64,000 nucleotides of DNA from a virus (taxonomy: Duplodnaviria; Caudoviricetes), in IMG/VR virus record IMGVR_UViG_3300028888_000085, positions 1 through 64,000 of that record. One strand, given 5' to 3'. Under the pieces are notes generated by a model. It was not told where the DNA came from, made no database searches, and saw only the letters and a program-made list of their open reading frames with translations. Position 1 is the stretch's first letter, and the number at the start of each line of letters is the position of its first letter. Positions 5,548 to 59,869 of the stretch are shown piece by piece. Both the position numbers and the translations under genes were made by a program.

Positions 5548-8500
5548 ATGAGTACGATTTTCTTTATTGGTCAAAATCCTGCCACTGGCAATCAGACACT
5601 GTATAGCGTTACAGCAGGAACCCTCGGTTCCATCATGGATTCTTTCAATCCGGACAAAGACATTGTTGAGCAGATTTGGCAGAAGCGTTATGTGTTTCTT
5701 AATGCAACCTACTTTGACAGCATGAAAGAACACGCTCGTGAATTGACGGATAGTTCTGTTGTTCCTCGTGGTACTGCCGACAAGTCCGTTGTGAAGTGCA
5801 GAAACCTTAAAACGGATGATGTGAAAGTTCGTTTCCTTCGTAACAGTATTTCGCAGTACAAACGTGAAAGTGACATCAGTCTGCTTCTCAAGATTGAAGA
5901 GTGTGAACATGAATTTACATTGCTTACACAGGCTGAACCAATACAGCTTAGACCAGATGCACGTCACATTCAGGAACTGTTCAAGATTGACGGTGACATT
6001 AACATTTACAAAGCCAGTGATGTCGTTTCAACCTCTACTGGTGGAAACATTATTGCCTGGCGTGTAGGGTCGTATAACGGACACAGCATCATTACTCTTG
6101 AGAACTCGCCGGATGCACAGAAATACGTTCTTGTAAGCGAGGACGTGATTGTCGGTGTTGCCAATGCAGTTCCTTCCGAGTTCGATGCAAATGCAGTTTC
6201 CGTCAATGCACAGTTGACGGTCGGCGATGTTCAGAAAGACTGTCTTGTCCGCGACAATGAAAATGTCCACGAACCTCTCGGTGCTCACACGACACATGAA
6301 GTTTTGCGTCAGTGGAAAACTTATTTTGAACTGTCGTTGTCGAACGATTCCGGTACGGTCGTCGTAAACATTGACGGATGTCATGTCGATTACAATGTTT
6401 ATGCAGCAAAACCGTTACAGTACATCGAACTTACGCAGCGTGTTGAAATCGAAGGTTCGCTTTCGTCTATCGGTTCTCGCTGGAAAGTCGAGTCTATGGA
6501 TGAAAACGGAATCGTTCCAGAGATCAACATCTTTACGCCCGACGTGAAAGAAACGATTACGAACTACGATTCGTTTATTTTCGTTAATGACAATCCTTGC
6601 ATTGCATTGCAGGATACGACGGTTACGGTTACGCAGTCCGTTATGCTTCGTCCGTCATACAGTCTTGAGAACAATGAAGGTCGTAGTTTCGGAAAACTTC
6701 CGGTTGGTTCCGTTCATACCGCTGATATGGTTGTTTACGATAAGAGTGGTCGTGCATGGTTCCACATTACGTCCGATGAACCGATTGAACTGGAACAGTC
6801 CGAGGGTATCTTTACGCGACGTGGTTGGGTCAACGGCAAAGCATCTGACGGCAATTACATCTTTTCTGAGATTGAGCCTACGGTCGTTGATGACCATAAC
6901 GTTCGTGTAAAAGAATGCACTTATATTACTGTTAAACAGGATTTGGGGCCGGTCGAAGGTAGTCCGCTTGTCGGCAATGCTTACGTAATGGTTGAATCCC
7001 TTCAAGCTGTAACAGCAGAAGACGGTGAACCTCACGATCTTTCCTATGGCGATAAGGTGCAGCTCGTTCGTTTGTTCACGAACAAATTCCAGTTCATGCA
7101 CAATGGTGTTATGTGCGAACTTCCAGAGGCTTCTCTTGATGTGGATGTTCGTCGTGAAGTTACGGGCATATTTGAGCCGTTTGTTGCTGACGATAATATG
7201 TTATCGTTCGACGGCGATTATCTTTGCGTGATTCGTGGTGAAGAACTTCATAACATTATCGCATTTGTTGAGGATGACTACATCGATAGTACAGATGACG
7301 TGATCTTCAGAGAAACCTTATATGGCGACTCTCATGTGTTCAAGATTCTCGGTGATGGCATTCATGGTTCTTACCGTTACGTCAAATTGCTTGAAGGTGA
7401 TGAAGAAGAGGGTTCAACGTACATCGCGAAGTATAGCGAAATCCTTATTCCAACTCGTTACGAACTGGCAGAGGGCGATAGACTCAAGAACTTCACGCCG
7501 AACGATATTTCTCTGAAACGCACACCTTTTCACGGTGCTTCTGAATCAGAGTTCGTCCCGGCAGGTACAACTCTTGACCTTTCAAGTGCTTTCGGTGTAA
7601 CGCTCAATACTAACTGGGGTATCGGCGTTGATGACAACAAATATACCGATGCTCCGTTATACGAAGAAATTCACGATCCTAATTTTGATAATGCTAGAGA
7701 AGTGTTCTTCTTTGGAAATACCGTAAATCTTTCCCCCGTTGCTTTTTATGACAATGATGGTGTTGAAACAGGATGGGTTTCCAACGATTCTCTTGTGTTT
7801 AACATTAGATCAGACGGACATATTTTGTCGAATTTGACTGCAATAAATTATGCTAGAATTTGTACCGCAGGTGATCCTCAGAATATTGTATTTGGTGATG
7901 CCATTAGTGATCAGTATCCAGACCGTATTCTGATCCATGATTCTTTTAACGGTTATTACCTTGCAGATGCAAATGCGAAAATTCATTCCTATAATCTTCA
8001 GTCTGAGTATCAAGATTCCTACATGATGCTTGGGTCTGTTGATGTGTTGGACTTTAACAATCATCGTGAAGAGTCTTGCACTAATGGTTGTGTTGTTACT
8101 GTCACTGGTGGTTTCCAAAATGTCGAACGTAGTGAGAATTTTGATCCATGGTTTGCTGACATCAACTGTCTTCATGTCCCTGGAATTGATGAATTCAGAA
8201 TGGCTGATAAATCCAAATTCGTTGATTCGTTAGGTTTCGAGGACACTAATTGTTTTGTTTTGATCCATAAATATGCCGATCTTACTGAAAGTGAATTTGG
8301 TAATTACATCACAGAACAAGAACTTGGAGACAATTCGTTTGAGGTTTCCATTGATCCTTGTTCTGGTACTGACAGCTATACAGTTTCTAAGTATTTCTAC
8401 TGTGGAATGTCAGCTTCCGGAACAGATTGCATTTTACCAGTTTCGACCTATGAAACAAAACAAGTCATGGCCGGTCTGGTTGCCAATATGGTCAGAAAGA

Positions 8501-10911
8501 TTCGTGTAGATGCTGATAATGAGGTGTTTTACATTTCTGATGACGGCTATGCATATCCTGCAAGTATTCTGTCTGCCATAGGACAGGTCACGACGATTAC
8601 GCGTTTCGATTCGCCCAAGAACGTTTGGGTGACGAAAGATTCCACGGTTGTTAGTACGCACATGAATCCGTCTATCACAAGCGATGCTCCATCGAACATT
8701 ATGATTCGTCAGGCGCGTTCATTGTCCGGTATCGCCGAAGTTGCAGAACAAGAGCGTGATCCTCATGGATTCTTCCTCAAGTTGTTAGGCAGTAGTTCGC
8801 AGAATCTTCAAGGTTCAGACACAATCTTACTGGCTGAGATCAATGGTGAAGAAGTCTATATCGACATTGTTGAAGACGGCGATGACATTTACGTTGTTGA
8901 AGTCACTGATGAAAATCTCAAGACGGTATTTGTCGGTAATGCCGATGAGACGACGACCGTTGCGGGCATTGATTCTACGGATGGCGAAATTGCCGAAAGT
9001 GATGCGTTTGACTATTACACAGCAGTGCTTCATGCCGGTGACATCGTTACTTTCACGAAATCGTTTATGGGTGTGAATGAAAAGGTTTACCTGTTTGTAA
9101 AGGAAGGCAATGGAGTGATTCATTCCGCCAAGGCTTCACGTCTTGCAAGTGACTTTATTGACATTCAGGATATGGGTCAGGATGCACCGCAGTATTACTT
9201 CAAAGACCGTTCTTCTGTTCTTGCTCCAATGACTTATCAGTTGAATGGCGAGAATATCAGTGAGGCAGAACTCAACTCTGTTGACAAACGTGCCATCATG
9301 CTTGCAAATGTAAACAATCCTTACATGGTTTACATCGCACCTGGTGTCGCAACAGATGCGTACAGAAGCGCACGTGTTTCCTTACATCAGCCTCTTGTGC
9401 TGAATAATGACGGTACAGTCGATGTTACTGCTTACATGTACCTGATTCCGAATGGTCGCATGATTCCGAAATATTCCGCTTCTTATAATGGCTTGCTGTA
9501 TTACGGGTTTGAACTTGGTGTTACGACAAATACTGAGGTAATTGGTGAGGTCATTGTGTGGGCAGCACCTATCAGTCTTGACCAAGTAATACCTGCTACC
9601 ATGGAAGATTGTGATTTGCAGGTGTTCCCGAGAGTAGTGTTCAGTCTGTACTCGGATTATTCTCTTTCGTCTTCACGTACTGATTACGCAGTCGGTGTGA
9701 TTGAAGGTCACGAAAGTATTGACAGTTTCCAAGAGTTCCATTTGGATAAGTCCGTAACTCAGAATGGTAATGTCACGTTTTATCGGATTTCTCAGGATTC
9801 CGGCATTTTCTCAGGCAAATACATCCCGTCCGATATGGTTCATTATGTGATTGAGGATGTTACTGAAAACCTTCAGCTGTTCCATAAGAAAGACCCTCAA
9901 TTCAACATCGTTTCACCTATTAGTTTAGGCACTTTGCCTGTTATTGCTCATAGTCTGTACATGACTCCGACACGTAAATTTACCGCGAACATGAATGCAA
10001 ATGGAGTACATACTTTGTATGAGGTAACGGTTACATTGTCTGGTAACGATGGTGTTCCTTCCGTTCATAAGGCGTGGATTTACGATACAGATTGTTATAT
10101 CGTTCAAGTCCCGTCCGAAGCTGAGTCTATCAATGATGAAACCGTTACGGTTCATGCAAATGCAAATGCGTACTTGTGGGATGCTGCAGATGCACCTGTG
10201 ATGCATGTGTTTGCTGAAGAGCAGACATTTAATGATTTCAGTGTTGTGAGCGATGAAAACGGCGACCGTTATATCTGCGTAGAAATGGCACGCAGTGAAC
10301 TGAACAACGCTGATTCTCATATCACAGTTGACGACCCGATGACGCCTGATGTTAATGAGAGTACGGAAGCACTTCGTGTGTTTATCCCTGCTTCGGATGT
10401 TACCAGAAACACACAGGGTTCTGGTAATACGTTCCTCGATGTGGCTGACTTTGATGTCTATATCGGTACGCAGCAGGCGTCCATCCCACTGTCAAAGGCG
10501 GACGGAAGCGGCGAATCTTTAAGCAGTGAGGAGGAATCCGCACTTCTTGAATACCTTGATTCCCGTCAGAATGTTGCACACATTGATGCGGCGTATGTTG
10601 ATGAGAACGACCGTGTGGTCATGTACAGAATCTCCTCTGAGTCTTCACCTGTTGAACATTATGCCTGCATAAATATTCAAGAACTTGGTGAAGACTGGAT
10701 TATGAACCGGACAGTTGTTCCTTTGACAGGACAGGATGCCGTTGTCGTTGACTCGCAAGAGGATGAAGGCGACTCTGTAGGTGAGATTCTTACCGTTCTT
10801 TGGAAGTTTACTACAACAGAGGAAGACGCAGAGTTCTTCGATTGTGGAGTAGCTGTTCCGGTGGATGACGAACACGGTTCTGAAGAGATAGTCAGGATTG
10901 TCGAGGTGTAG
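5548..10911 (+). CDS. Very large acidic virion protein with degenerate SH3b-like repeats (putative adhesin/fibre)
   Basis: 1787 aa. Segments such as VMLRPSYS...GKLPVGS...AWFHI and ISLKRTP...VPAGTTL resemble SH3b domains. Located between two fibre genes. Confidence 0.45.
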   Translation: MSTIFFIGQNPATGNQTLYSVTAGTLGSIMDSFNPDKDIVEQIWQKRYVFLNATYFDSMKEHARELTDSSVVPRGTADKSVVKCRNLKTDDVKVRFLRNSISQYKRESDISLLLKIEECEHEFTLLTQAEPIQLRPDARHIQELFKIDGDINIYKASDVVSTSTGGNIIAWRVGSYNGHSIITLENSPDAQKYVLVSEDVIVGVANAVPSEFDANAVSVNAQLTVGDVQKDCLVRDNENVHEPLGAHTTHEVLRQWKTYFELSLSNDSGTVVVNIDGCHVDYNVYAAKPLQYIELTQRVEIEGSLSSIGSRWKVESMDENGIVPEINIFTPDVKETITNYDSFIFVNDNPCIALQDTTVTVTQSVMLRPSYSLENNEGRSFGKLPVGSVHTADMVVYDKSGRAWFHITSDEPIELEQSEGIFTRRGWVNGKASDGNYIFSEIEPTVVDDHNVRVKECTYITVKQDLGPVEGSPLVGNAYVMVESLQAVTAEDGEPHDLSYGDKVQLVRLFTNKFQFMHNGVMCELPEASLDVDVRREVTGIFEPFVADDNMLSFDGDYLCVIRGEELHNIIAFVEDDYIDSTDDVIFRETLYGDSHVFKILGDGIHGSYRYVKLLEGDEEEGSTYIAKYSEILIPTRYELAEGDRLKNFTPNDISLKRTPFHGASESEFVPAGTTLDLSSAFGVTLNTNWGIGVDDNKYTDAPLYEEIHDPNFDNAREVFFFGNTVNLSPVAFYDNDGVETGWVSNDSLVFNIRSDGHILSNLTAINYARICTAGDPQNIVFGDAISDQYPDRILIHDSFNGYYLADANAKIHSYNLQSEYQDSYMMLGSVDVLDFNNHREESCTNGCVVTVTGGFQNVERSENFDPWFADINCLHVPGIDEFRMADKSKFVDSLGFEDTNCFVLIHKYADLTESEFGNYITEQELGDNSFEVSIDPCSGTDSYTVSKYFYCGMSASGTDCILPVSTYETKQVMAGLVANMVRKIRVDADNEVFYISDDGYAYPASILSAIGQVTTITRFDSPKNVWVTKDSTVVSTHMNPSITSDAPSNIMIRQARSLSGIAEVAEQERDPHGFFLKLLGSSSQNLQGSDTILLAEINGEEVYIDIVEDGDDIYVVEVTDENLKTVFVGNADETTTVAGIDSTDGEIAESDAFDYYTAVLHAGDIVTFTKSFMGVNEKVYLFVKEGNGVIHSAKASRLASDFIDIQDMGQDAPQYYFKDRSSVLAPMTYQLNGENISEAELNSVDKRAIMLANVNNPYMVYIAPGVATDAYRSARVSLHQPLVLNNDGTVDVTAYMYLIPNGRMIPKYSASYNGLLYYGFELGVTTNTEVIGEVIVWAAPISLDQVIPATMEDCDLQVFPRVVFSLYSDYSLSSSRTDYAVGVIEGHESIDSFQEFHLDKSVTQNGNVTFYRISQDSGIFSGKYIPSDMVHYVIEDVTENLQLFHKKDPQFNIVSPISLGTLPVIAHSLYMTPTRKFTANMNANGVHTLYEVTVTLSGNDGVPSVHKAWIYDTDCYIVQVPSEAESINDETVTVHANANAYLWDAADAPVMHVFAEEQTFNDFSVVSDENGDRYICVEMARSELNNADSHITVDDPMTPDVNESTEALRVFIPASDVTRNTQGSGNTFLDVADFDVYIGTQQASIPLSKADGSGESLSSEEESALLEYLDSRQNVAHIDAAYVDENDRVVMYRISSESSPVEHYACINIQELGEDWIMNRTVVPLTGQDAVVVDSQEDEGDSVGEILTVLWKFTTTEEDAEFFDCGVAVPVDDEHGSEEIVRIVEV

Positions 10912-13400: not shown

Positions 13401-13445
13401 AAAATCGCGTAGAACACGCCTAATTTGCGTTCTACGCGATTTTTT
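13401..13445. terminator. Bidirectional terminator between convergent blocks
   Basis: AAAATCGCGTAGAAC...GTTCTACGCGATTTTT inverted repeat. Confidence 0.75.
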
Positions 13446-13502
13446 GTTTTAGGTATGTACTTACTAGGGTAATAATGTAACTTTTTAGTACAGGGCAAAT
13501 TT
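13421..13502 (-). repeat. Dispersed ~90-bp intergenic element, copy A
   Basis: Reverse complement reads AAATTTGCCCTGTACTAAAAAGTTAC...AGTAC...AAAACAAAAAATCG...GCAAATTA, matching the copies at 37608 and 49831. Confidence 0.9.
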
Positions 13503-13578
13503 GGTCTTGTTCTGAGACAGAATGTTCAACGGTATTCAGTCTTCTGGTTTGAGTTTAGGCTTTTTCAAAAATGATACA

Positions 13579-13772: not shown

Positions 13773-14447
13773 CTATTCATTATCGTCTTCGTCAAAGTCA
13801 TCGTCCAACTGCTTATAGTAGTCATCTGCCTTTGCCTTTAGAATGGATTTGACACGTTTCTTAATCCCAGGCAACAAACACTTAGCATCACGAACACTGT
13901 CAGGATACTTGTCGAGAATTTCAATAAACGTCTGAACGGCATCCAACCAATCCCATGTCACATTGTCTGGAATGTTGTTGAGGTTCGACTGCTCATCTAT
14001 TGGGTGAAACCGATAACCATCGCATGGCAGCGTGAAGTCTCTTATGCGTTCTTTAACAGTAAAGACCTTATGAATGTGTTCGTTTAACTTGTCTGCCACT
14101 TCTTCTGAAAGCAAATAGTCTGCTTCGTTTCCATTGTGAGCTGACTCCAATTCATCACCGAGCGTGAAGGTTCTGTTGAGCAAATGAGCTTTGACTTGTT
14201 CTGCAACAGCCTTTTCCAGTCGCTTGCAGAACAGCTCGTTGTCTCTAACCGGCGAATAAAGTACAGAGTCACCATTCGTTTCCGGTTCTGTGTTGTCACG
14301 TTCTTGAACAATCCGACCGTCTGTGTTCCATGCAAAGCCATTTCCCCATACGAGAAACAACTGATGGTATGCAACGGTTGCGTTACGGATAGAACACGGT
14401 GCGTTAAGCATCATGTCTAATACTGTGTCATAAGCTGTCTTTACCAT
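13773..14447 (-). CDS. Hypothetical protein
   Basis: 224-aa ORF in the minus-strand block. Confidence 0.75.
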   Translation of the reverse strand: MVKTAYDTVLDMMLNAPCSIRNATVAYHQLFLVWGNGFAWNTDGRIVQERDNTEPETNGDSVLYSPVRDNELFCKRLEKAVAEQVKAHLLNRTFTLGDELESAHNGNEADYLLSEEVADKLNEHIHKVFTVKERIRDFTLPCDGYRFHPIDEQSNLNNIPDNVTWDWLDAVQTFIEILDKYPDSVRDAKCLLPGIKKRVKSILKAKADDYYKQLDDDFDEDDNE

Positions 14448-21759: not shown

Positions 21760-21772
21760 GACAGGCATTCCT

Positions 21773-21957
21773 GTAAGCCATCGGCATGAGAGCCGATGTA
21801 ATGCGTATTATCATTTACGATAACACGGCTTCCCCTTGACAAGGCATCAACTGAATTGGATGAACTGGGGAGGTATTCAAGCGTTTCATTAAAGTTGATG
21901 CGTAGCTCCGAAGAACTAAGTCTGTTCCCATCAGTGTGACATTTGGGACCTTTAGAG
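21773..21957 (-). ncRNA. omegaRNA/HEARO-like scaffold with anti-repeat, fused to the terminal CRISPR repeat (locus 1)
   Basis: Minus strand: anti-repeat AAATGTCACACTGATGGGAAC (21924-21944), CAGACTTAG, C-UUCG-G hairpin, CTACG, GCATCAAC/GTTGATGC stem, TCCCC...GGGGA pseudoknot, GGCTTAC. Collinear with 59514-59707. Confidence 0.8.
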
Positions 21958-22191
21958 GTATCACACCCGTTATAAATGCCATACCTACGAGACTCTTGCA
22001 TAACAAAACTTTTCTTGTAAAAAGTATCATACTCGTAATAAATGACATACCTCTGAGACCGCCTGTTGCTTGCTACGGTGGCGAGGTGCGTATAACACCC
22101 GTAATAAATGACATACCTCTGAGACCATGAGTCCACGTAAGCGACATTGACATTCGTATAACACCCGTAATAAATGTCACACCTCTAAGAC
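21958..22191 (-). CRISPR. Mini CRISPR array: four 36-bp repeats, three 30-bp spacers
   Basis: Repeats at 21958-21993, 22024-22059, 22090-22125, 22156-22191 (exact 66-bp period). Minus-strand consensus GTCTCAGAGGTATGTCATTTATTACGGGTGTTATAC. Spacers are unrelated to each other. Confidence 0.92.
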
Positions 22192-27658: not shown

Positions 27659-29512
27659 ATGCCGACAGTGACCAAGAAAATCGTAGGTGAAGTATTTGGA
27701 GACCTTACCATCATAGGTGAGAATCGTGAGCAGCGTGCATTAAGGGCAGTATGTCGATGTGTATGTGGAAATGAGTATCTGGTGCAGTACAACCGTCTTG
27801 TAAAGGGCGGAATAACCTGTTGTATGGAATGTAAGAAGAAAGCGTCCAAGATTTCTGAGCGTGATAGACGTGATGAGAGGAACCGACTTTACAAGGAAGC
27901 TGATACAATACAGCCTTCAAAAGGCGATGTGTTCTGGAACTTTACGGTTGTTCGTCCCATTGATGACCCAACGACTGGTGGTCGGTGCAGATACGTGTTT
28001 CGGTGTCGGTGCGGTAATTGCCGTATTGAACATCTGAACTCTGTTGTGTCCGGCAGGATAAAGTCATGTGGATGTCTTAAACGCAACCAGTTTAGTGATG
28101 ATGTGAATGCTTCTGATGTACCTGCCGGAAGTACAAGTCATACGCTTGTCTTTACAGGGGAGACGAAATCAGAGGGTTATGGTGATGATGCTTTGCGCTT
28201 TTATCGCTGCACATGTTCTCTCTGTGGTATGTCTTCATGGTACTCAAAAAGGCTTTTTAAGCAGGGGTGTGCTAAATGTGATTGTGAACGACTCCAAGAA
28301 CGCAGAAGACACTTTATTGAAGTCCTAAAGAAGTACCGTGTCAGGAAGTACCCAAAATATAACCGTGAAGAACTTGTAAAGGGTATGCGTTATGGAAATC
28401 TTACCGTCATAAAGAGAACGGAAAATCCACCCAAGAATGAATCGTCCTTATGGTATGACTGCATGTGTGACTGTGGAAACACTGTATCTGTGAGTAAGAA
28501 ATCACTTCTTAATGGTATGGTGCGTTCGTGCGGATGCCTTTCTACGGATAATTTCGATGAACCTGGTGAATCCACTGACTTGGTTGTAAGACCAGAAGGA
28601 GTTCCGGCTCTATGCATTGCACATAAACAACGTACATCCATAACGCTGTCCTCTTATGGTGTTAAGTTCAATGAAACAGCAGGGATGCGTTTGCATTCTC
28701 TTATGTCTTCATCTGTAAACAGAATTAAGTTTCCTGTAGCCGATTATCCCTCATACGGTACTGTTTCATCTGGTGAAGACGTAACGATGAAATCCGTTAT
28801 TCGGTGTTTTTCTCCGACATTTTACTCTCTGCTGTATGAGCGTGCTTCATCTGATTCGTCTGATGGTCAGTATGACTTCAAGGTGATGGATTATATAAAG
28901 ACGAACGAGGAGTTTCTTTCCAGGATAGATTACAGTCCGTTTGTTGAGCATCTTATGCCGTGCGATTACAAAGATGAGCTGTTTATGTACGTTGAATGTG
29001 TGTGTGCATACCTGTGCTTACGGTTCGATGCACGTCTTTTGCTTTCACGTAAAGTTCGTTGCAAGCCTCCTGTGCTTACCCTGCGTGTGTTCCCAACGGT
29101 ATCCAACTTTCGATTTACGGACAGATTATTCCATGATTTCCTGACCTGGTTTTGTTCGTCATTCGTTCGTAAAACCACGTCTGAAGATTCATATCGGTTT
29201 GTTGTCGAATTGACGATGCCTGAGGTATGGTTTTCAGATGTTACATGTATGCATCCTTCTGAGCGTAAAGCGGCTATCCGCAAATATCCTGTATGGCTTA
29301 GAAATGACTGCATTGTTCGTGAACGTGTGTTTTCACATGTGGGATTTTCCCTTCGTTCCTTGCTTGCCCTTATGTACCCTGAAGTGCACGAGTTTTATGT
29401 ACGGACATCTCCGGCATGTGAGGTGTGCCTTCGCATGATGAGCAGACTTGGCTTTGTCGTATCTGATGAAATTCCTTGTGCTTCTTTTACGTATGAATAT
29501 CAAACTCGCTAA
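27659..29512 (+). CDS. Cys-rich protein with repeated CxCxCG...SCGC modules (homing-endonuclease-associated DNA-binding type)
   Basis: Three to four repeats of FG/YG-xLT...CxCxCGN...G..SCGC. No obvious HNH catalytic core. Confidence 0.6.
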   Translation: MPTVTKKIVGEVFGDLTIIGENREQRALRAVCRCVCGNEYLVQYNRLVKGGITCCMECKKKASKISERDRRDERNRLYKEADTIQPSKGDVFWNFTVVRPIDDPTTGGRCRYVFRCRCGNCRIEHLNSVVSGRIKSCGCLKRNQFSDDVNASDVPAGSTSHTLVFTGETKSEGYGDDALRFYRCTCSLCGMSSWYSKRLFKQGCAKCDCERLQERRRHFIEVLKKYRVRKYPKYNREELVKGMRYGNLTVIKRTENPPKNESSLWYDCMCDCGNTVSVSKKSLLNGMVRSCGCLSTDNFDEPGESTDLVVRPEGVPALCIAHKQRTSITLSSYGVKFNETAGMRLHSLMSSSVNRIKFPVADYPSYGTVSSGEDVTMKSVIRCFSPTFYSLLYERASSDSSDGQYDFKVMDYIKTNEEFLSRIDYSPFVEHLMPCDYKDELFMYVECVCAYLCLRFDARLLLSRKVRCKPPVLTLRVFPTVSNFRFTDRLFHDFLTWFCSSFVRKTTSEDSYRFVVELTMPEVWFSDVTCMHPSERKAAIRKYPVWLRNDCIVRERVFSHVGFSLRSLLALMYPEVHEFYVRTSPACEVCLRMMSRLGFVVSDEIPCASFTYEYQTR

Positions 29513-37528: not shown

Positions 37529-37607
37529 TCTGTGTGCAGTCCTCTTGCGTGTTTGAAGAAAAATCCCTGTGTTCTCCGTCATAGGGATTTTTCTTTATAT
37601 GGTACTC

Positions 37608-37706
37608 AAATTTGCCCTGTACTAAAAAGTTACGTCCTTATCCTGGTGAGTACACACATAAAACAAAAATGCGTCAGAACGCAAATTAGACCCATTTACG
37701 GATGTG
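37608..37706 (+). repeat. Dispersed ~90-bp intergenic element, copy B
   Basis: AAATTTGCCCTGTACTAAAAAGTTACG...GAGTACAC...AAAACAAAAAT...GCAAATTAGACCC. Confidence 0.9.
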
Positions 37707-37724
37707 TTTGTTCAGGAGGTAAAA

Positions 37725-40128: not shown

Positions 40129-41232
40129 ATGCTTCGTACAGACAAACGAAACTTATTGCTTCGTAAGGAAGCATTAGGTGTCAAGTCAACAAATGTTCCT
40201 GATGTTCAGAATTTCAAGCATCTGGTGAAGCTCGCATGGAAGTTCCGTGATAAATCAGTTCAGGAGTTTTCTGACTGGTTGGAAAATAATCTCGTTGGTT
40301 TCGATGCTTATGATTATATGTATGCCATGGCTGCTTTCGGATGCCTTAACGACCAAAAACGTGTCGATGTGTGGGATGCTTTGTTCGCAGTTGTGGAACA
40401 ATTATTCGGAAAGTCTTCACCGGAATATAAGTTTGCCCTTGAAACGTATTATACGGATGCTTCGCCATGTTCCAGCCGTAAAGACGTAATACAGCACTGT
40501 CTTTACGTGTACTGGCATGACACACCTGTTGCTGTTGCCATAAGGAAAATGTGCAAAGACTCAAGCTCTTACAGAGGTCAACTCACTTATGACGATGCTT
40601 ACCCTGTTATTGCAGTATGTCGAGATACTAAAGTGAAAGGCAATGGTAATCTCTATTCCAGTTATGCTTCTGATATGGAAAAATGGTTTGAAGAGATGTT
40701 TGGTCAGAAGCAAGAGAGTCATTGTATTACACGTAAGCGTTCTACCGAGGCATCCATTCGGTTTGGAAGTGATTTGTGGCAGCAGACTGAACATATCGTG
40801 AACAAGGCCGTCCGGGATGTCATGTTTTCACATCCTCTTTGTAAGGATAGCCGTTTCAAGGTCACGGACATTGAAATTTATGCAGATGACGAACATTGGG
40901 TTGAAGGAAGCGGCGGAACGGTCGATTTTTGTGTTCAGTTTTTCAAGTCTGATTTGTTTGCTGTTGACATGGAAGTCTCGTTCTGTCCAAAAGGCGTTAT
41001 CGACGGTGAATTTCGTTGTGATTACGAAGTGATTTTGAACGATGATTCAAAAGTTCGTGTGCGTCCATACAGAGTCGAAAAGGACTTCACTGTTGACTAT
41101 AAACCAACACAGAGTTCTGCTTTTACGTACCTTTCCAATTACTTGTATGACAGCCTGAAAGAGATGATGTTTGAAGCTCTTGAGCATTTGGCTGAGGGAC
41201 TCGAAATGAAAGGCATTTTGATGAACCGTTAA
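40129..41232 (+). CDS. Putative head-packaged polyprotein (2 modules)
   Basis: AGGAG RBS. Leader MLRTDKRNLLLRKEA. Linker QESHCITRKRSTEAS. Confidence 0.55.
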   Translation: MLRTDKRNLLLRKEALGVKSTNVPDVQNFKHLVKLAWKFRDKSVQEFSDWLENNLVGFDAYDYMYAMAAFGCLNDQKRVDVWDALFAVVEQLFGKSSPEYKFALETYYTDASPCSSRKDVIQHCLYVYWHDTPVAVAIRKMCKDSSSYRGQLTYDDAYPVIAVCRDTKVKGNGNLYSSYASDMEKWFEEMFGQKQESHCITRKRSTEASIRFGSDLWQQTEHIVNKAVRDVMFSHPLCKDSRFKVTDIEIYADDEHWVEGSGGTVDFCVQFFKSDLFAVDMEVSFCPKGVIDGEFRCDYEVILNDDSKVRVRPYRVEKDFTVDYKPTQSSAFTYLSNYLYDSLKEMMFEALEHLAEGLEMKGILMNR

Positions 41233-49739: not shown

Positions 49740-49830
49740 TGCTTGATGCGTTTCAGAGTACGGTTCGGTTTCGTCAAGGGGATTTTCCAGTCAGGTTAAT
49801 CCCCTTTTCTTTTTCGTTCATGTACCCACC

Positions 49831-49931
49831 AAATTTGCCCTGTACTAAAAAGTTACGACCTTACCCTAGTGAGTACACGTCTAAAACAAAAAATCGAGTA
49901 CAGAGCAAATTAGACCCCTTTACGGACGTGT
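49831..49931 (+). repeat. Dispersed ~90-bp intergenic element, copy C
   Basis: AAATTTGCCCTGTACTAAAAAGTTACG...GAGTACAC...AAAACAAAAAATCG...GCAAATTAGACCC. Confidence 0.9.
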
Positions 49932-49968
49932 TCAATTTTTACATTGAGTTCTTTGGAGATTTTATACC

Positions 49969-58171: not shown

Positions 58172-58927
58172 TTACGATTCCGGTTGTTTTGTCAAGATGC
58201 TTCTAATCCGTTTCTTTGCGACCTCAAAGTAATGTTCATCTTTTTCGATGCCTATGAAATCCCTGTCCAGGTTTACGCAGGCGATGCCGGTTGTTCCGCT
58301 TCCCATACAGTTGTCAAGAACGGCCATACCTTCTTGTGTGTACGTCTTAATCAGGTATTCACAGAGAGCAACCGGTTTCTGTGTCGGATGAAGTTGGTCC
58401 TGTCGCCGCCATTTCTGCTGAAATCTGAGTATCGTCGTTGGATAACGAAATCCATCATTTGTGCTTTCAACCTCACGGCGATTGAATCCGATTCCATGAT
58501 TGTTTACATCACATTCGCTTATCTTATGTGTTCGATGGTATGGTTCGCCTGATTCCATGATGGGATAATACTGCGTCCGTTTACCGTTCAAACTGAATAC
58601 GCTTATCGTCTCATGCTTGCAGACTGGGCGGTACTTAGCCGTGAACGCAGACCCGGATTTCGATTTCTCCCATACCCAGTCATATTTGAACTCTTTCAGA
58701 TTGGACATTCTCAATGCACTGCTGAATGGTTCAGCACCAAACAGGCATATTGCACAATTAGGCTTTATGATGCGGCGATATTGCGTCCACAATGCATCGA
58801 ACGGAATAGGAGTGTCCCATTTGCATGAGGTTGTTCCGTAAGGCAGGTCGCACAGAATCATGTCGATTGAACGGTCTGGAATCTGCTTCATTATGTTCAG
58901 ACAATCGCCGTTAAAAAGCTGCATCAT
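58172..58927 (-). CDS. Orphan N4-cytosine/N6-adenine DNA methyltransferase (beta class)
   Basis: GDCL, DLPYG (motif IV), HPTQKP, LDNCMGSGTTG (motif I). Confidence 0.93.
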   Translation of the reverse strand: MMQLFNGDCLNIMKQIPDRSIDMILCDLPYGTTSCKWDTPIPFDALWTQYRRIIKPNCAICLFGAEPFSSALRMSNLKEFKYDWVWEKSKSGSAFTAKYRPVCKHETISVFSLNGKRTQYYPIMESGEPYHRTHKISECDVNNHGIGFNRREVESTNDGFRYPTTILRFQQKWRRQDQLHPTQKPVALCEYLIKTYTQEGMAVLDNCMGSGTTGIACVNLDRDFIGIEKDEHYFEVAKKRIRSILTKQPES

Positions 58928-59032
58928 ATTTTCCTTAGTCAGTCGTGGTGCTGTGAAAGTTTCATCCAGTCTATGGTGCTATAACACTTACGCACTATTA
59001 TGGTGATAGTGCATTGAGTAAGGAGAGAGGAA

Positions 59033-59392
59033 ATGAGGACTTTGGAGAGAATTGAAACAGCAGTTTTAATGGAGGACTTTGATGGTGGGAATCTGTGTGA
59101 TGCGATTGATTTACGTACCGACGTTTTTGTTTCTCGGTGTGGTTCTGAAGTTACGTTACAGTTTGAAATCACACAGGGCAACCTTGTTGATTTGGCAGAC
59201 AAGATTCAGAACATTTCACGTCCGTGTAAATGCGAGAACTGTGAAAAAGCGTGCATGAATCCGAAACGTTGTCGGTTTTACTTCTCTGATAGATTTATTG
59301 AATGTTATGTGTCACATGTAATATGCGAGTTTTCAGAGAATGGTGAGTGTGCTTCGTTCACAATAACAGGAATAGTAGGACTTACTTTATGA
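59033..59392 (+). CDS. Hypothetical protein
   Basis: AAGGAG/GAGG RBS; Cys cluster. Confidence 0.65.
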   Translation: MRTLERIETAVLMEDFDGGNLCDAIDLRTDVFVSRCGSEVTLQFEITQGNLVDLADKIQNISRPCKCENCEKACMNPKRCRFYFSDRFIECYVSHVICEFSENGECASFTITGIVGLTL

Positions 59393-59477
59393 AAGAATAT
59401 GACATTCAAGTGCCTTGCATGATGTACGACAACATAACCTATTGGAGAGTGTAGGATGTCTCTTGAGCAATTCAAAT

Positions 59478-59513
59478 GTCTCAGAGGTATGGCATTTATT
59501 ATGGGTGTAATAC
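59478..59513 (+). CRISPR. Solitary CRISPR repeat (same family as 21958-22191)
   Basis: GTCTCAGAGGTATGGCATTTATTATGGGTGTAATAC; 33/36 identical to the repeat at 22090-22125. Confidence 0.85.
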
Positions 59514-59707
59514 CTCTAAATCACCCGTAACGAATGCCATGCTAATGAGAACAGACTAAGTTCTTTATTGAACTACGCATCAACTTTAAGAAACGTTTGA
59601 ATGCCTCCCCAGTTCATTCAATTCTGTTGATGCCTTGTCGAGGGGAAGTCGTATCGCCCTTACGGGAGGTACGCACTACACCAACTTTCATGTTGGTGGC
59701 TTATAGC
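59478..59707 (+). ncRNA. Natural single-guide-like RNA: repeat, loop, anti-repeat, omegaRNA/HEARO-like scaffold (locus 2)
   Basis: Anti-repeat 59522-59552 pairs with about 30 nt of the repeat. CAGACTAAG, CTACG, GCATCAAC/GTTGATGC, TCCCC/GGGGA, TTGTCGAGGGGAA, CACCAAC/GTTGGTG, GGCTTATAGC. Confidence 0.8.
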
Positions 59708-59869
59708 GAAAATTAGCAACATGATAACCTAAAAAGCCAGGCACTTTCTGAACAAATTTGGTGTGCGAACAGTTGTCGTTGAGGTTACAAAGGAAATCAC
59801 GGTGAAGAAAACTATCTGTGTCCATAACAGGTATGAACCAAATAATGACGTTGATAATGGAGAGTGACA

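Follow-up and report, generated by a model that had tools for sequence, protein, structure and literature searches.

Here we show that a jumbo phage genome carries a solitary CRISPR-like repeat joined to an anti-repeat and a scaffold (cassette B, 59448-59706), and we argue that this unit is probably a newly born stand-alone guide gene of the phage's own CRISPR-associated IscB nuclease, which would cut the intact allele that sister phages carry at the same site. One 36-nt repeat, an anti-repeat and a pseudoknotted scaffold together form a one-piece guide RNA, which is confirmed at the level of structure. On the sequence evidence it is highly likely that this RNA serves as a functional guide in trans. 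The cassette probably arose through spacer homology and would have been homing since, but the complete cycle of birth and homing is put forward tentatively, as a possibility somewhat short of likely.

The window, that is, the whole stretch of DNA that was analysed, covers the initial 64 kb of a virus record of 98,607 bp (G000), whose genes include those for a head protease, a major capsid protein and a tail-sheath protein; the same three proteins are also encoded on a 237,074-bp contig. A second record of 138,361 bp (G001) has a 163-bp overlap with the start of G000 at 98.8%, the two summing to 236.8 kb, and we infer that it is the remainder of this jumbo phage or comes from a near-identical strain. 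DNA pieces from related phages are labelled L with a number, L004 being a 243-kb relative. Searches of viral and metagenome contigs with the IscB and capsid proteins found no close relative. The repeat pattern had no exact match in 185,579 species genomes or in viral collections, nor was any host identified by a matching repeat. Also dispersed through the genome is a second non-coding element, ~90-110 nt long and containing a hairpin; it lies at 13420-13505, 37607-37708 and 49821-49940 in the window and at 73665-73749 in G000, and G001 has at least six further copies. The major capsid gene is directly followed by a gene for a 617-aa Cys-rich protein (27659-29512), which was rejected as an IscB: it has PHROG HNH-family matches, but the protein consists of repeated Cys-rich motifs.

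Table 1. Parts and surroundings of cassette B, with cassette A, in window coordinates
Feature	Position	Strand	Remark
Promoter-like phage box with extended -10	58945..58987	+	Box also found before cassettes E and F and several genes
119-aa phage gene upstream of cassette B	59033..59392	+	Conserved in cassette-less relatives
21-codon remnant of 143-aa gene	59389..59454	+	Deletion common to L009 and L004
Guide position, genomic flank	59448..59477	+	Ends in first 7 codons (ATG 59456) of disrupted ~189-aa gene
Single 36-nt CRISPR-like repeat	59478..59513	+	Empty-allele homology stops exactly at its first base
8-nt loop	59514..59521	+	First 7 nt invariant in 10/10 full copies
Anti-repeat	59522..59556	+	Pairs with repeat: upper duplex and 4-bp lower stem
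OmegaRNA-type scaffold	59557..59706	+	Small hairpin, long stem 59577-59633, two terminal hairpins
Scaffold pseudoknot	59606-59610 with 59642-59646	+	
Tail common to cassette C	59707..59732	+	Empty-allele homology restarts at 59733, within 91-aa gene
Cassette A	21771..22191	-	Four repeats, three 30-nt spacers, anti-repeat, scaffold

The box at 58945 is the probable start of a transcript that would run through the 119-aa gene into cassette B (Table 1); a sigma-70 scan found no plus-strand site, and neither a promoter nor a terminator match of its own was detected. The deletion in the 143-aa gene is older than the cassette, since the cassette-less phages L009 and L004 share it. DNA methyltransferase genes adjoin both cassette B (window 58172-58927) and cassette E (G000 83548-85286).

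On the strand of cassette B the folding z-score is -6.7, and none of 200 shuffles folded equally well. Comparison of 11 copies, taken from this phage and from related ones, shows that 93.8% of cells are paired and that both sides have changed in 16 pairs; none of 500 shuffles reached this level, and slid controls gave 2-5 such pairs. These figures are counts and not probabilities, since the copies share ancestry and themselves served to derive the structure. A sequence-only reading of this DNA had described a solitary repeat, short loop, anti-repeat and scaffold, here located at 59478-59706, as collinear with a reverse-strand locus 1 (cassette A) and as maintained by selection on the RNA fold. 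This description is upheld by blastn (76% over 238 nt, E 1e-44) and by the double-changed pairs. The covariation that it read from its stem comparisons also stands, but the first of these, GTATGGC/GCCATGC against GTGTGAC/GTCACAC, did not compare like with like, since the letters quoted for locus 1 belong to the distal repeat (22156-22191) and in the repeat next to the anti-repeat they are the same as in cassette B. The pseudoknot, which had been called invariant, in fact covaries in a wider set (columns 137/171: C-G in 5, U-A in 4), an exchange that strengthens it. An Rfam search with the cassette RNA returned nothing at gathering level and nothing notable by E-value.

Cassette B is missing from five related phages (L008, L009, L013, L014 and L004). 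In each of these empty alleles the 30-nt guide position closes with the first 7 codons of a gene for 188-189 aa and is followed by the motif NRAA, and homology to the cassette-bearing phage breaks off and resumes at the same two points (Table 1); 673 bp of the closest empty allele (L009) are replaced by the cassette. The guide matches L008 at 30/30 and L014 at 29/30 positions, and L004 carries a mismatch two bases short of the 3' end. As judged from these alignments the guide is the phage's own flank and not an array spacer; no copy of it was found as an array spacer in ~190 kb of relatives' DNA and this phage's 237 kb. The tail matching that of cassette C points to a C-like donor. Empty-site alleles and a target for the guide, two leads of the sequence-only reading, were thus both found (the L008 target being perfect and motif-flanked), and the cassette-free alleles favour its suggestion of a non-autonomous mobile unit; what it missed is that the guide is the flank of the insertion site. 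The same variable region around site B harbours TnpB and DDE transposase insertions in relatives (L008:3094-5741; L009:1479-3119 and 8126-9400).

The cognate nuclease appears to be an intact 607-aa IscB encoded on the minus strand of G000 (81174-82997), directly behind cassette E. Although it is true, as had been noted from the sequence, that no effector ORF follows cassette B, the IscB gene lies 21.5 kb past the scaffold, outside the window, and had been missed. The protein scores 269 bits against NF040563 (cut-off 175), contains RRXRR and HNH domains, and has the PLMP, split RuvC and HNH of a CRISPR-associated IscB with catalytic residues D58, E213, H281, H400 and D403 intact. The array, anti-repeat and scaffold directly upstream of iscB that mark such systems are present in cassette E, and the pseudoknotted omega-type scaffold is present in the cassette B RNA as well; cassette B, ~81% identical to cassette E, is a detached copy. 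The 607-aa protein falls into a separate five-member cluster, the next relatives being plain IscBs of ~420 aa at ~45% identity, from which it differs by a 56-aa insert after the bridge helix, the position at which REC-like inserts are located (PMC13180657), and by ~60 aa more after RuvC-III. An AlphaFold model reached a mean pLDDT of 50, and a Cas9d model scored 20 bits against the nuclease (cut-off 375). The scaffold's 3' half can be aligned to the upstream region of one of the nearest plain IscBs, and arrays were found at 0 of 59 related IscB loci, with positive controls passed. Because the nearest relatives are plain IscBs and none of these loci has an array, an omegaRNA here seems to have recruited CRISPR repeats independently. 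Neither cas1 nor a Y1 transposase (TnpA) was found on G000 or G001. In all strains the iscB stop codon lies within a degenerate repeat (G000 81174-81188; L002:1174-1188), and in L032/L033 a further five-repeat array directly follows iscB (L032:11810-12131).

Six cassettes are dispersed over G000, at 22 kb (A, 4 repeats), 59 kb (B, 1), 64.6 kb (C, 2), 74.3 kb (D, 6), 83.2 kb (E, 4) and 96.2 kb (F, 7), and would share the one IscB by loading in trans; cassette B is the youngest of them. The coexistence of solitary and arrayed states in one genome, and a dispersed set of guides, had both been anticipated from the window and extend to the whole record. L046 lacks cassette A, whose first repeat provides the stop codon for the gene upstream; at the junction of the empty allele of cassette A, an older joint, the motif is missing. 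A collapsed seventh cassette in G001 (40892-41082; L036:1496-1680), with a copy of the second hairpin element directly after it, has its first five repeat bases joined straight to the anti-repeat, leaving a truncated copy with a short hairpin like that of a plain omegaRNA; this copy forms the end of the upstream gene. The 5' flank of cassette E (G000 83437-83466) looks like a ribosome site followed by a start and four codons, as if the cassette had landed in a gene start. The order of the amidase-to-iscB segment relative to the ligase gene varies among strains (L032 versus G000 78-92 kb; L047:19656-20675), and dispersed inverted cassettes could drive such segment inversions.

Growth of the arrays has a polarity. 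Repeats degrade with distance from the scaffold, and the E arrays of L003 and L032 differ only in one additional spacer that L003 has beside the scaffold; the newest spacer is therefore the scaffold-fused one, which is the polarity of type II-C arrays (PMC12080349). Read on the opposite strand, the loop after the last repeat resembles the type II-A leader-end motif (PMC5382924), and by this analogy the invariant loop is possibly an integration signal. The simplest source of new spacers would be host Cas1-Cas2 acting in trans. The phage's own promoter box recurs within D spacer 3, as would fit a sister-phage origin. E spacer 2 also lies within the D array of L003, and scaffolds appear mosaic across cassettes.

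Targets of the array spacers lie in sister phages. E spacer 1 matches L004 and L008, and matches to G001 come from D spacer 5 (5 mismatches), E spacer 2 (8) and a spacer in the C cassette of L004 (5). Variable spacers with targets and a common TAM, as in CRISPR-associated IscB systems, are thus present here, on few sites: NRAA follows 4 of 4 array-spacer targets (5-8 mismatches) against 5.2% of positions in the background and 1 of 41 best matches of shuffled spacers, the motif having been read post hoc from the same few sites and the 8-mismatch match of E spacer 2 lying, on its own, near the shuffled range. E spacer 2 (G000 83305-83334) and the L004 C spacer (L004:13833-13862) are approximately reverse complements directed at the same phage site (G001 77401-77431), as opposite-strand spacers each with NRAA on its own 3' side. 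In this phage (G000 and G001) the longest motif-flanked self-match of any of its own guides is 9 nt; in relatives such matches reach 30 nt for the cassette B guide and 16 nt for E spacer 1 (in L004), and an L004 spacer has 16 nt plus the motif in G001. Since OgeuIscB needs ~14 TAM-proximal matches, with an NNRR TAM (PMC9640706), these reciprocal 16-nt seeds suggest that this phage and its 243-kb relative are armed against each other. The L004 copy of cassette C (13797-14120) holds a guide directed at this phage, the L004 contig has no IscB of the 607-aa clade on record, and L004 may borrow the nuclease during co-infection. For most spacers the ~190 kb of DNA from relatives contained no target, and among the phage's own guides of at least 17 nt, 14 of 17 lack an identified one; searching GenBank phages with array F and plasmids with array D yielded chance-level matches only. 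An 18-nt match of C spacer 1 in L109, which has neither extension nor motif, was taken as chance.

The mechanism that we favour builds on the observed RNA structure, intact IscB, empty alleles, junctions, target matches, motif, absence of self-targets and array polarity, from which we infer expression, 5' trimming, trans loading, cleavage, the mode of birth and the Cas1-Cas2 source. Cassette B would be read through from the upstream phage box, and its transcript would fold, with 5' trimming, into a one-piece guide of flank guide, repeat:anti-repeat duplex and omegaRNA scaffold. This RNA would load in trans on the single IscB encoded at 81-83 kb of the contig, which would cut flank-matching DNA followed by NRAA, namely the intact allele of the disrupted gene in co-infecting sister phages; the phage's own copy would be safe because the repeat has replaced the TAM. 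As to its birth, an array guide may have cut a site in a sister phage, whereupon repair would have used the targeting spacer as homology and copied in the last repeat and scaffold, with the loss of 673 bp. Recombination between spacers and phage genomes has been reported (Varble 2019, as cited in 10.1101/2020.10.09.333658), and repair of this kind would place the repeat exactly at the protospacer end, remove the TAM and allow a ragged far end. The cassette would afterwards exclude or convert cassette-free relatives and could grow into an array as host Cas1-Cas2 adds scaffold-side spacers.

Because the flank of any insertion matches the empty allele, what speaks for a targeted birth is the junction motif, with its ~1-in-20 chance of occurring there anyway, and the deletion; the motif-less junction at the empty allele of cassette A, and the lack of a matching array spacer in the DNA of relatives and of this phage that was searched, speak against it. 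The foremost alternative, which we nevertheless regard as unlikely, accepts a working IscB guide and has the cassette arrive by chance ectopic recombination or non-autonomous transposition, with a coincidental junction motif and homing as a by-product. A motif found at 5% of positions, the cassette A junction, the movement of spacers between arrays (E spacer 2 in the L003 D array) and the mosaic look of the scaffolds are all compatible with such an arrival, but homology stops at the repeat's first base, precisely where a spacer would end, no Y1 transposase was found in either record, and the loss of 673 bp does not resemble the way in which IS200/605 elements insert, which is scarless (10.1101/2023.03.14.532601). 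The junction geometry, which is that of a spacer joined to a repeat after removal of the motif, would also result if a faulty Cas1-Cas2 reaction had joined a long phage DNA end to a repeat independently of spacer homology, and the leader-end resemblance of the invariant loop would suit it; this seems improbable, as the phage has no cas1, a second unexplained joint 673 bp away would be needed, and spacer-phage recombination is already on record. An inactive left-over copy is a shade less probable again: a left-over would explain why cassette B has neither promoter nor terminator match of its own, and a truncated copy does exist in G001, but the repeat of cassette B equals the family consensus, all its helices are intact and it lies in the sense orientation of a probable operon. 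Least probable is the RNA anti-CRISPR decoy that the sequence-only reading had also entertained, in which the RNA would sequester host Cas9 or IscB as solitary phage repeats do when acting as Racrs (PMC11656645), for an intact cognate IscB is encoded by the phage itself, behind a sister cassette, the RNA comprises more than a bare repeat, namely a complete covarying scaffold, the guide finds perfect targets flanked by the motif, and the search of species genomes found no exact match to the repeat pattern.

If birth through spacer homology is accepted, the cassettes may amount to a guide-only drive that dispenses with a transposase, an idea we hold as conceivable though not yet probable: a spacer-directed IscB break, mended by spacer homology, would plant a repeat and scaffold, and arrays would spread by their own targeting. 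As the flank becomes the new guide, the cassette would home into all empty alleles; it could then grow into an array and seed further cassettes, passing between omegaRNA and CRISPR states in either direction. If this is true, relatives that lack the nuclease could turn the shared IscB against its owner. More generally, the system suggests a natural role for CRISPR-IscB in conflict and homing among sister jumbo phages, and it yields a 607-aa IscB that has Cas9-like insertions, and for which a single guide is at hand and an NRAA TAM is predicted. The transition from the transposon omegaRNA with its flank guide to the CRISPR array is usually reconstructed from distant lineages; here a single living phage population offers the two states side by side, together with filled and empty alleles, natural targets and a TAM, and the transition becomes directly testable.

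CRISPR-associated IscB has been published, DelIscB being an example (described in PMC12660989, citing Altae-Tran et al. 2021). As in DelIscB, an array, a repeat/anti-repeat duplex and an omega-type scaffold occur in one ncRNA upstream of iscB; here, however, six dispersed cassettes, one of them flank-guided, serve one nuclease in a jumbo phage, the IscB has 607 aa against 457 aa, and the inferred TAM is NRAA against NAC. A literature search for jumbo-phage IscB arrays, of limited coverage and hence weak evidence, found no paper. The system is also distinct from type II CRISPR-Cas, with its cas9, cas1, cas2 and separate tracrRNA, in that cas1 is absent and the anti-repeat is fused to the array.

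Cassette B shares with the homing of IS200/IS605 IscB-omegaRNA elements (Meers et al., 10.1101/2023.03.14.532601) a flank-derived guide that targets a TAM-adjacent empty allele, and an orientation in the sense of the upstream gene. It differs from those elements in that no tnpA was found on the phage, its joint is not scarless (673 bp replaced), the unit contains no nuclease gene and a CRISPR repeat:anti-repeat takes the place of the 5' hairpin. In viruses, CRISPR mini-arrays (reviewed in PMC11656645) are likewise short, directed at related viruses, engaged in mutual targeting and free of adaptation genes, but they take a host effector and copy host repeats, whereas here the nuclease is the phage's own and each array is fused to a scaffold. 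The Cas12r-CRISPR of Thermus Lalka phages (10.64898/2026.04.20.719267) similarly pairs a compact phage nuclease with an array against mobile elements, but it is type V with spacers mostly against integrative elements, in contrast to the IscB and dispersed cassettes against sister phages seen here. Solitary repeat units or Racrs (PMC11656645) resemble cassette B in that one repeat stands alone in a phage genome; they are bare mimics of a host repeat and have no targeting guide, whereas the cassette B repeat forms one arm of a complete guide RNA, which has a real target and, in the phage's own IscB, a cognate nuclease. What this phage population appears to add to these systems is the combination of empty alleles, a flank-derived guide, a candidate TAM, freedom from self-targets and mutual targeting between sister phages.
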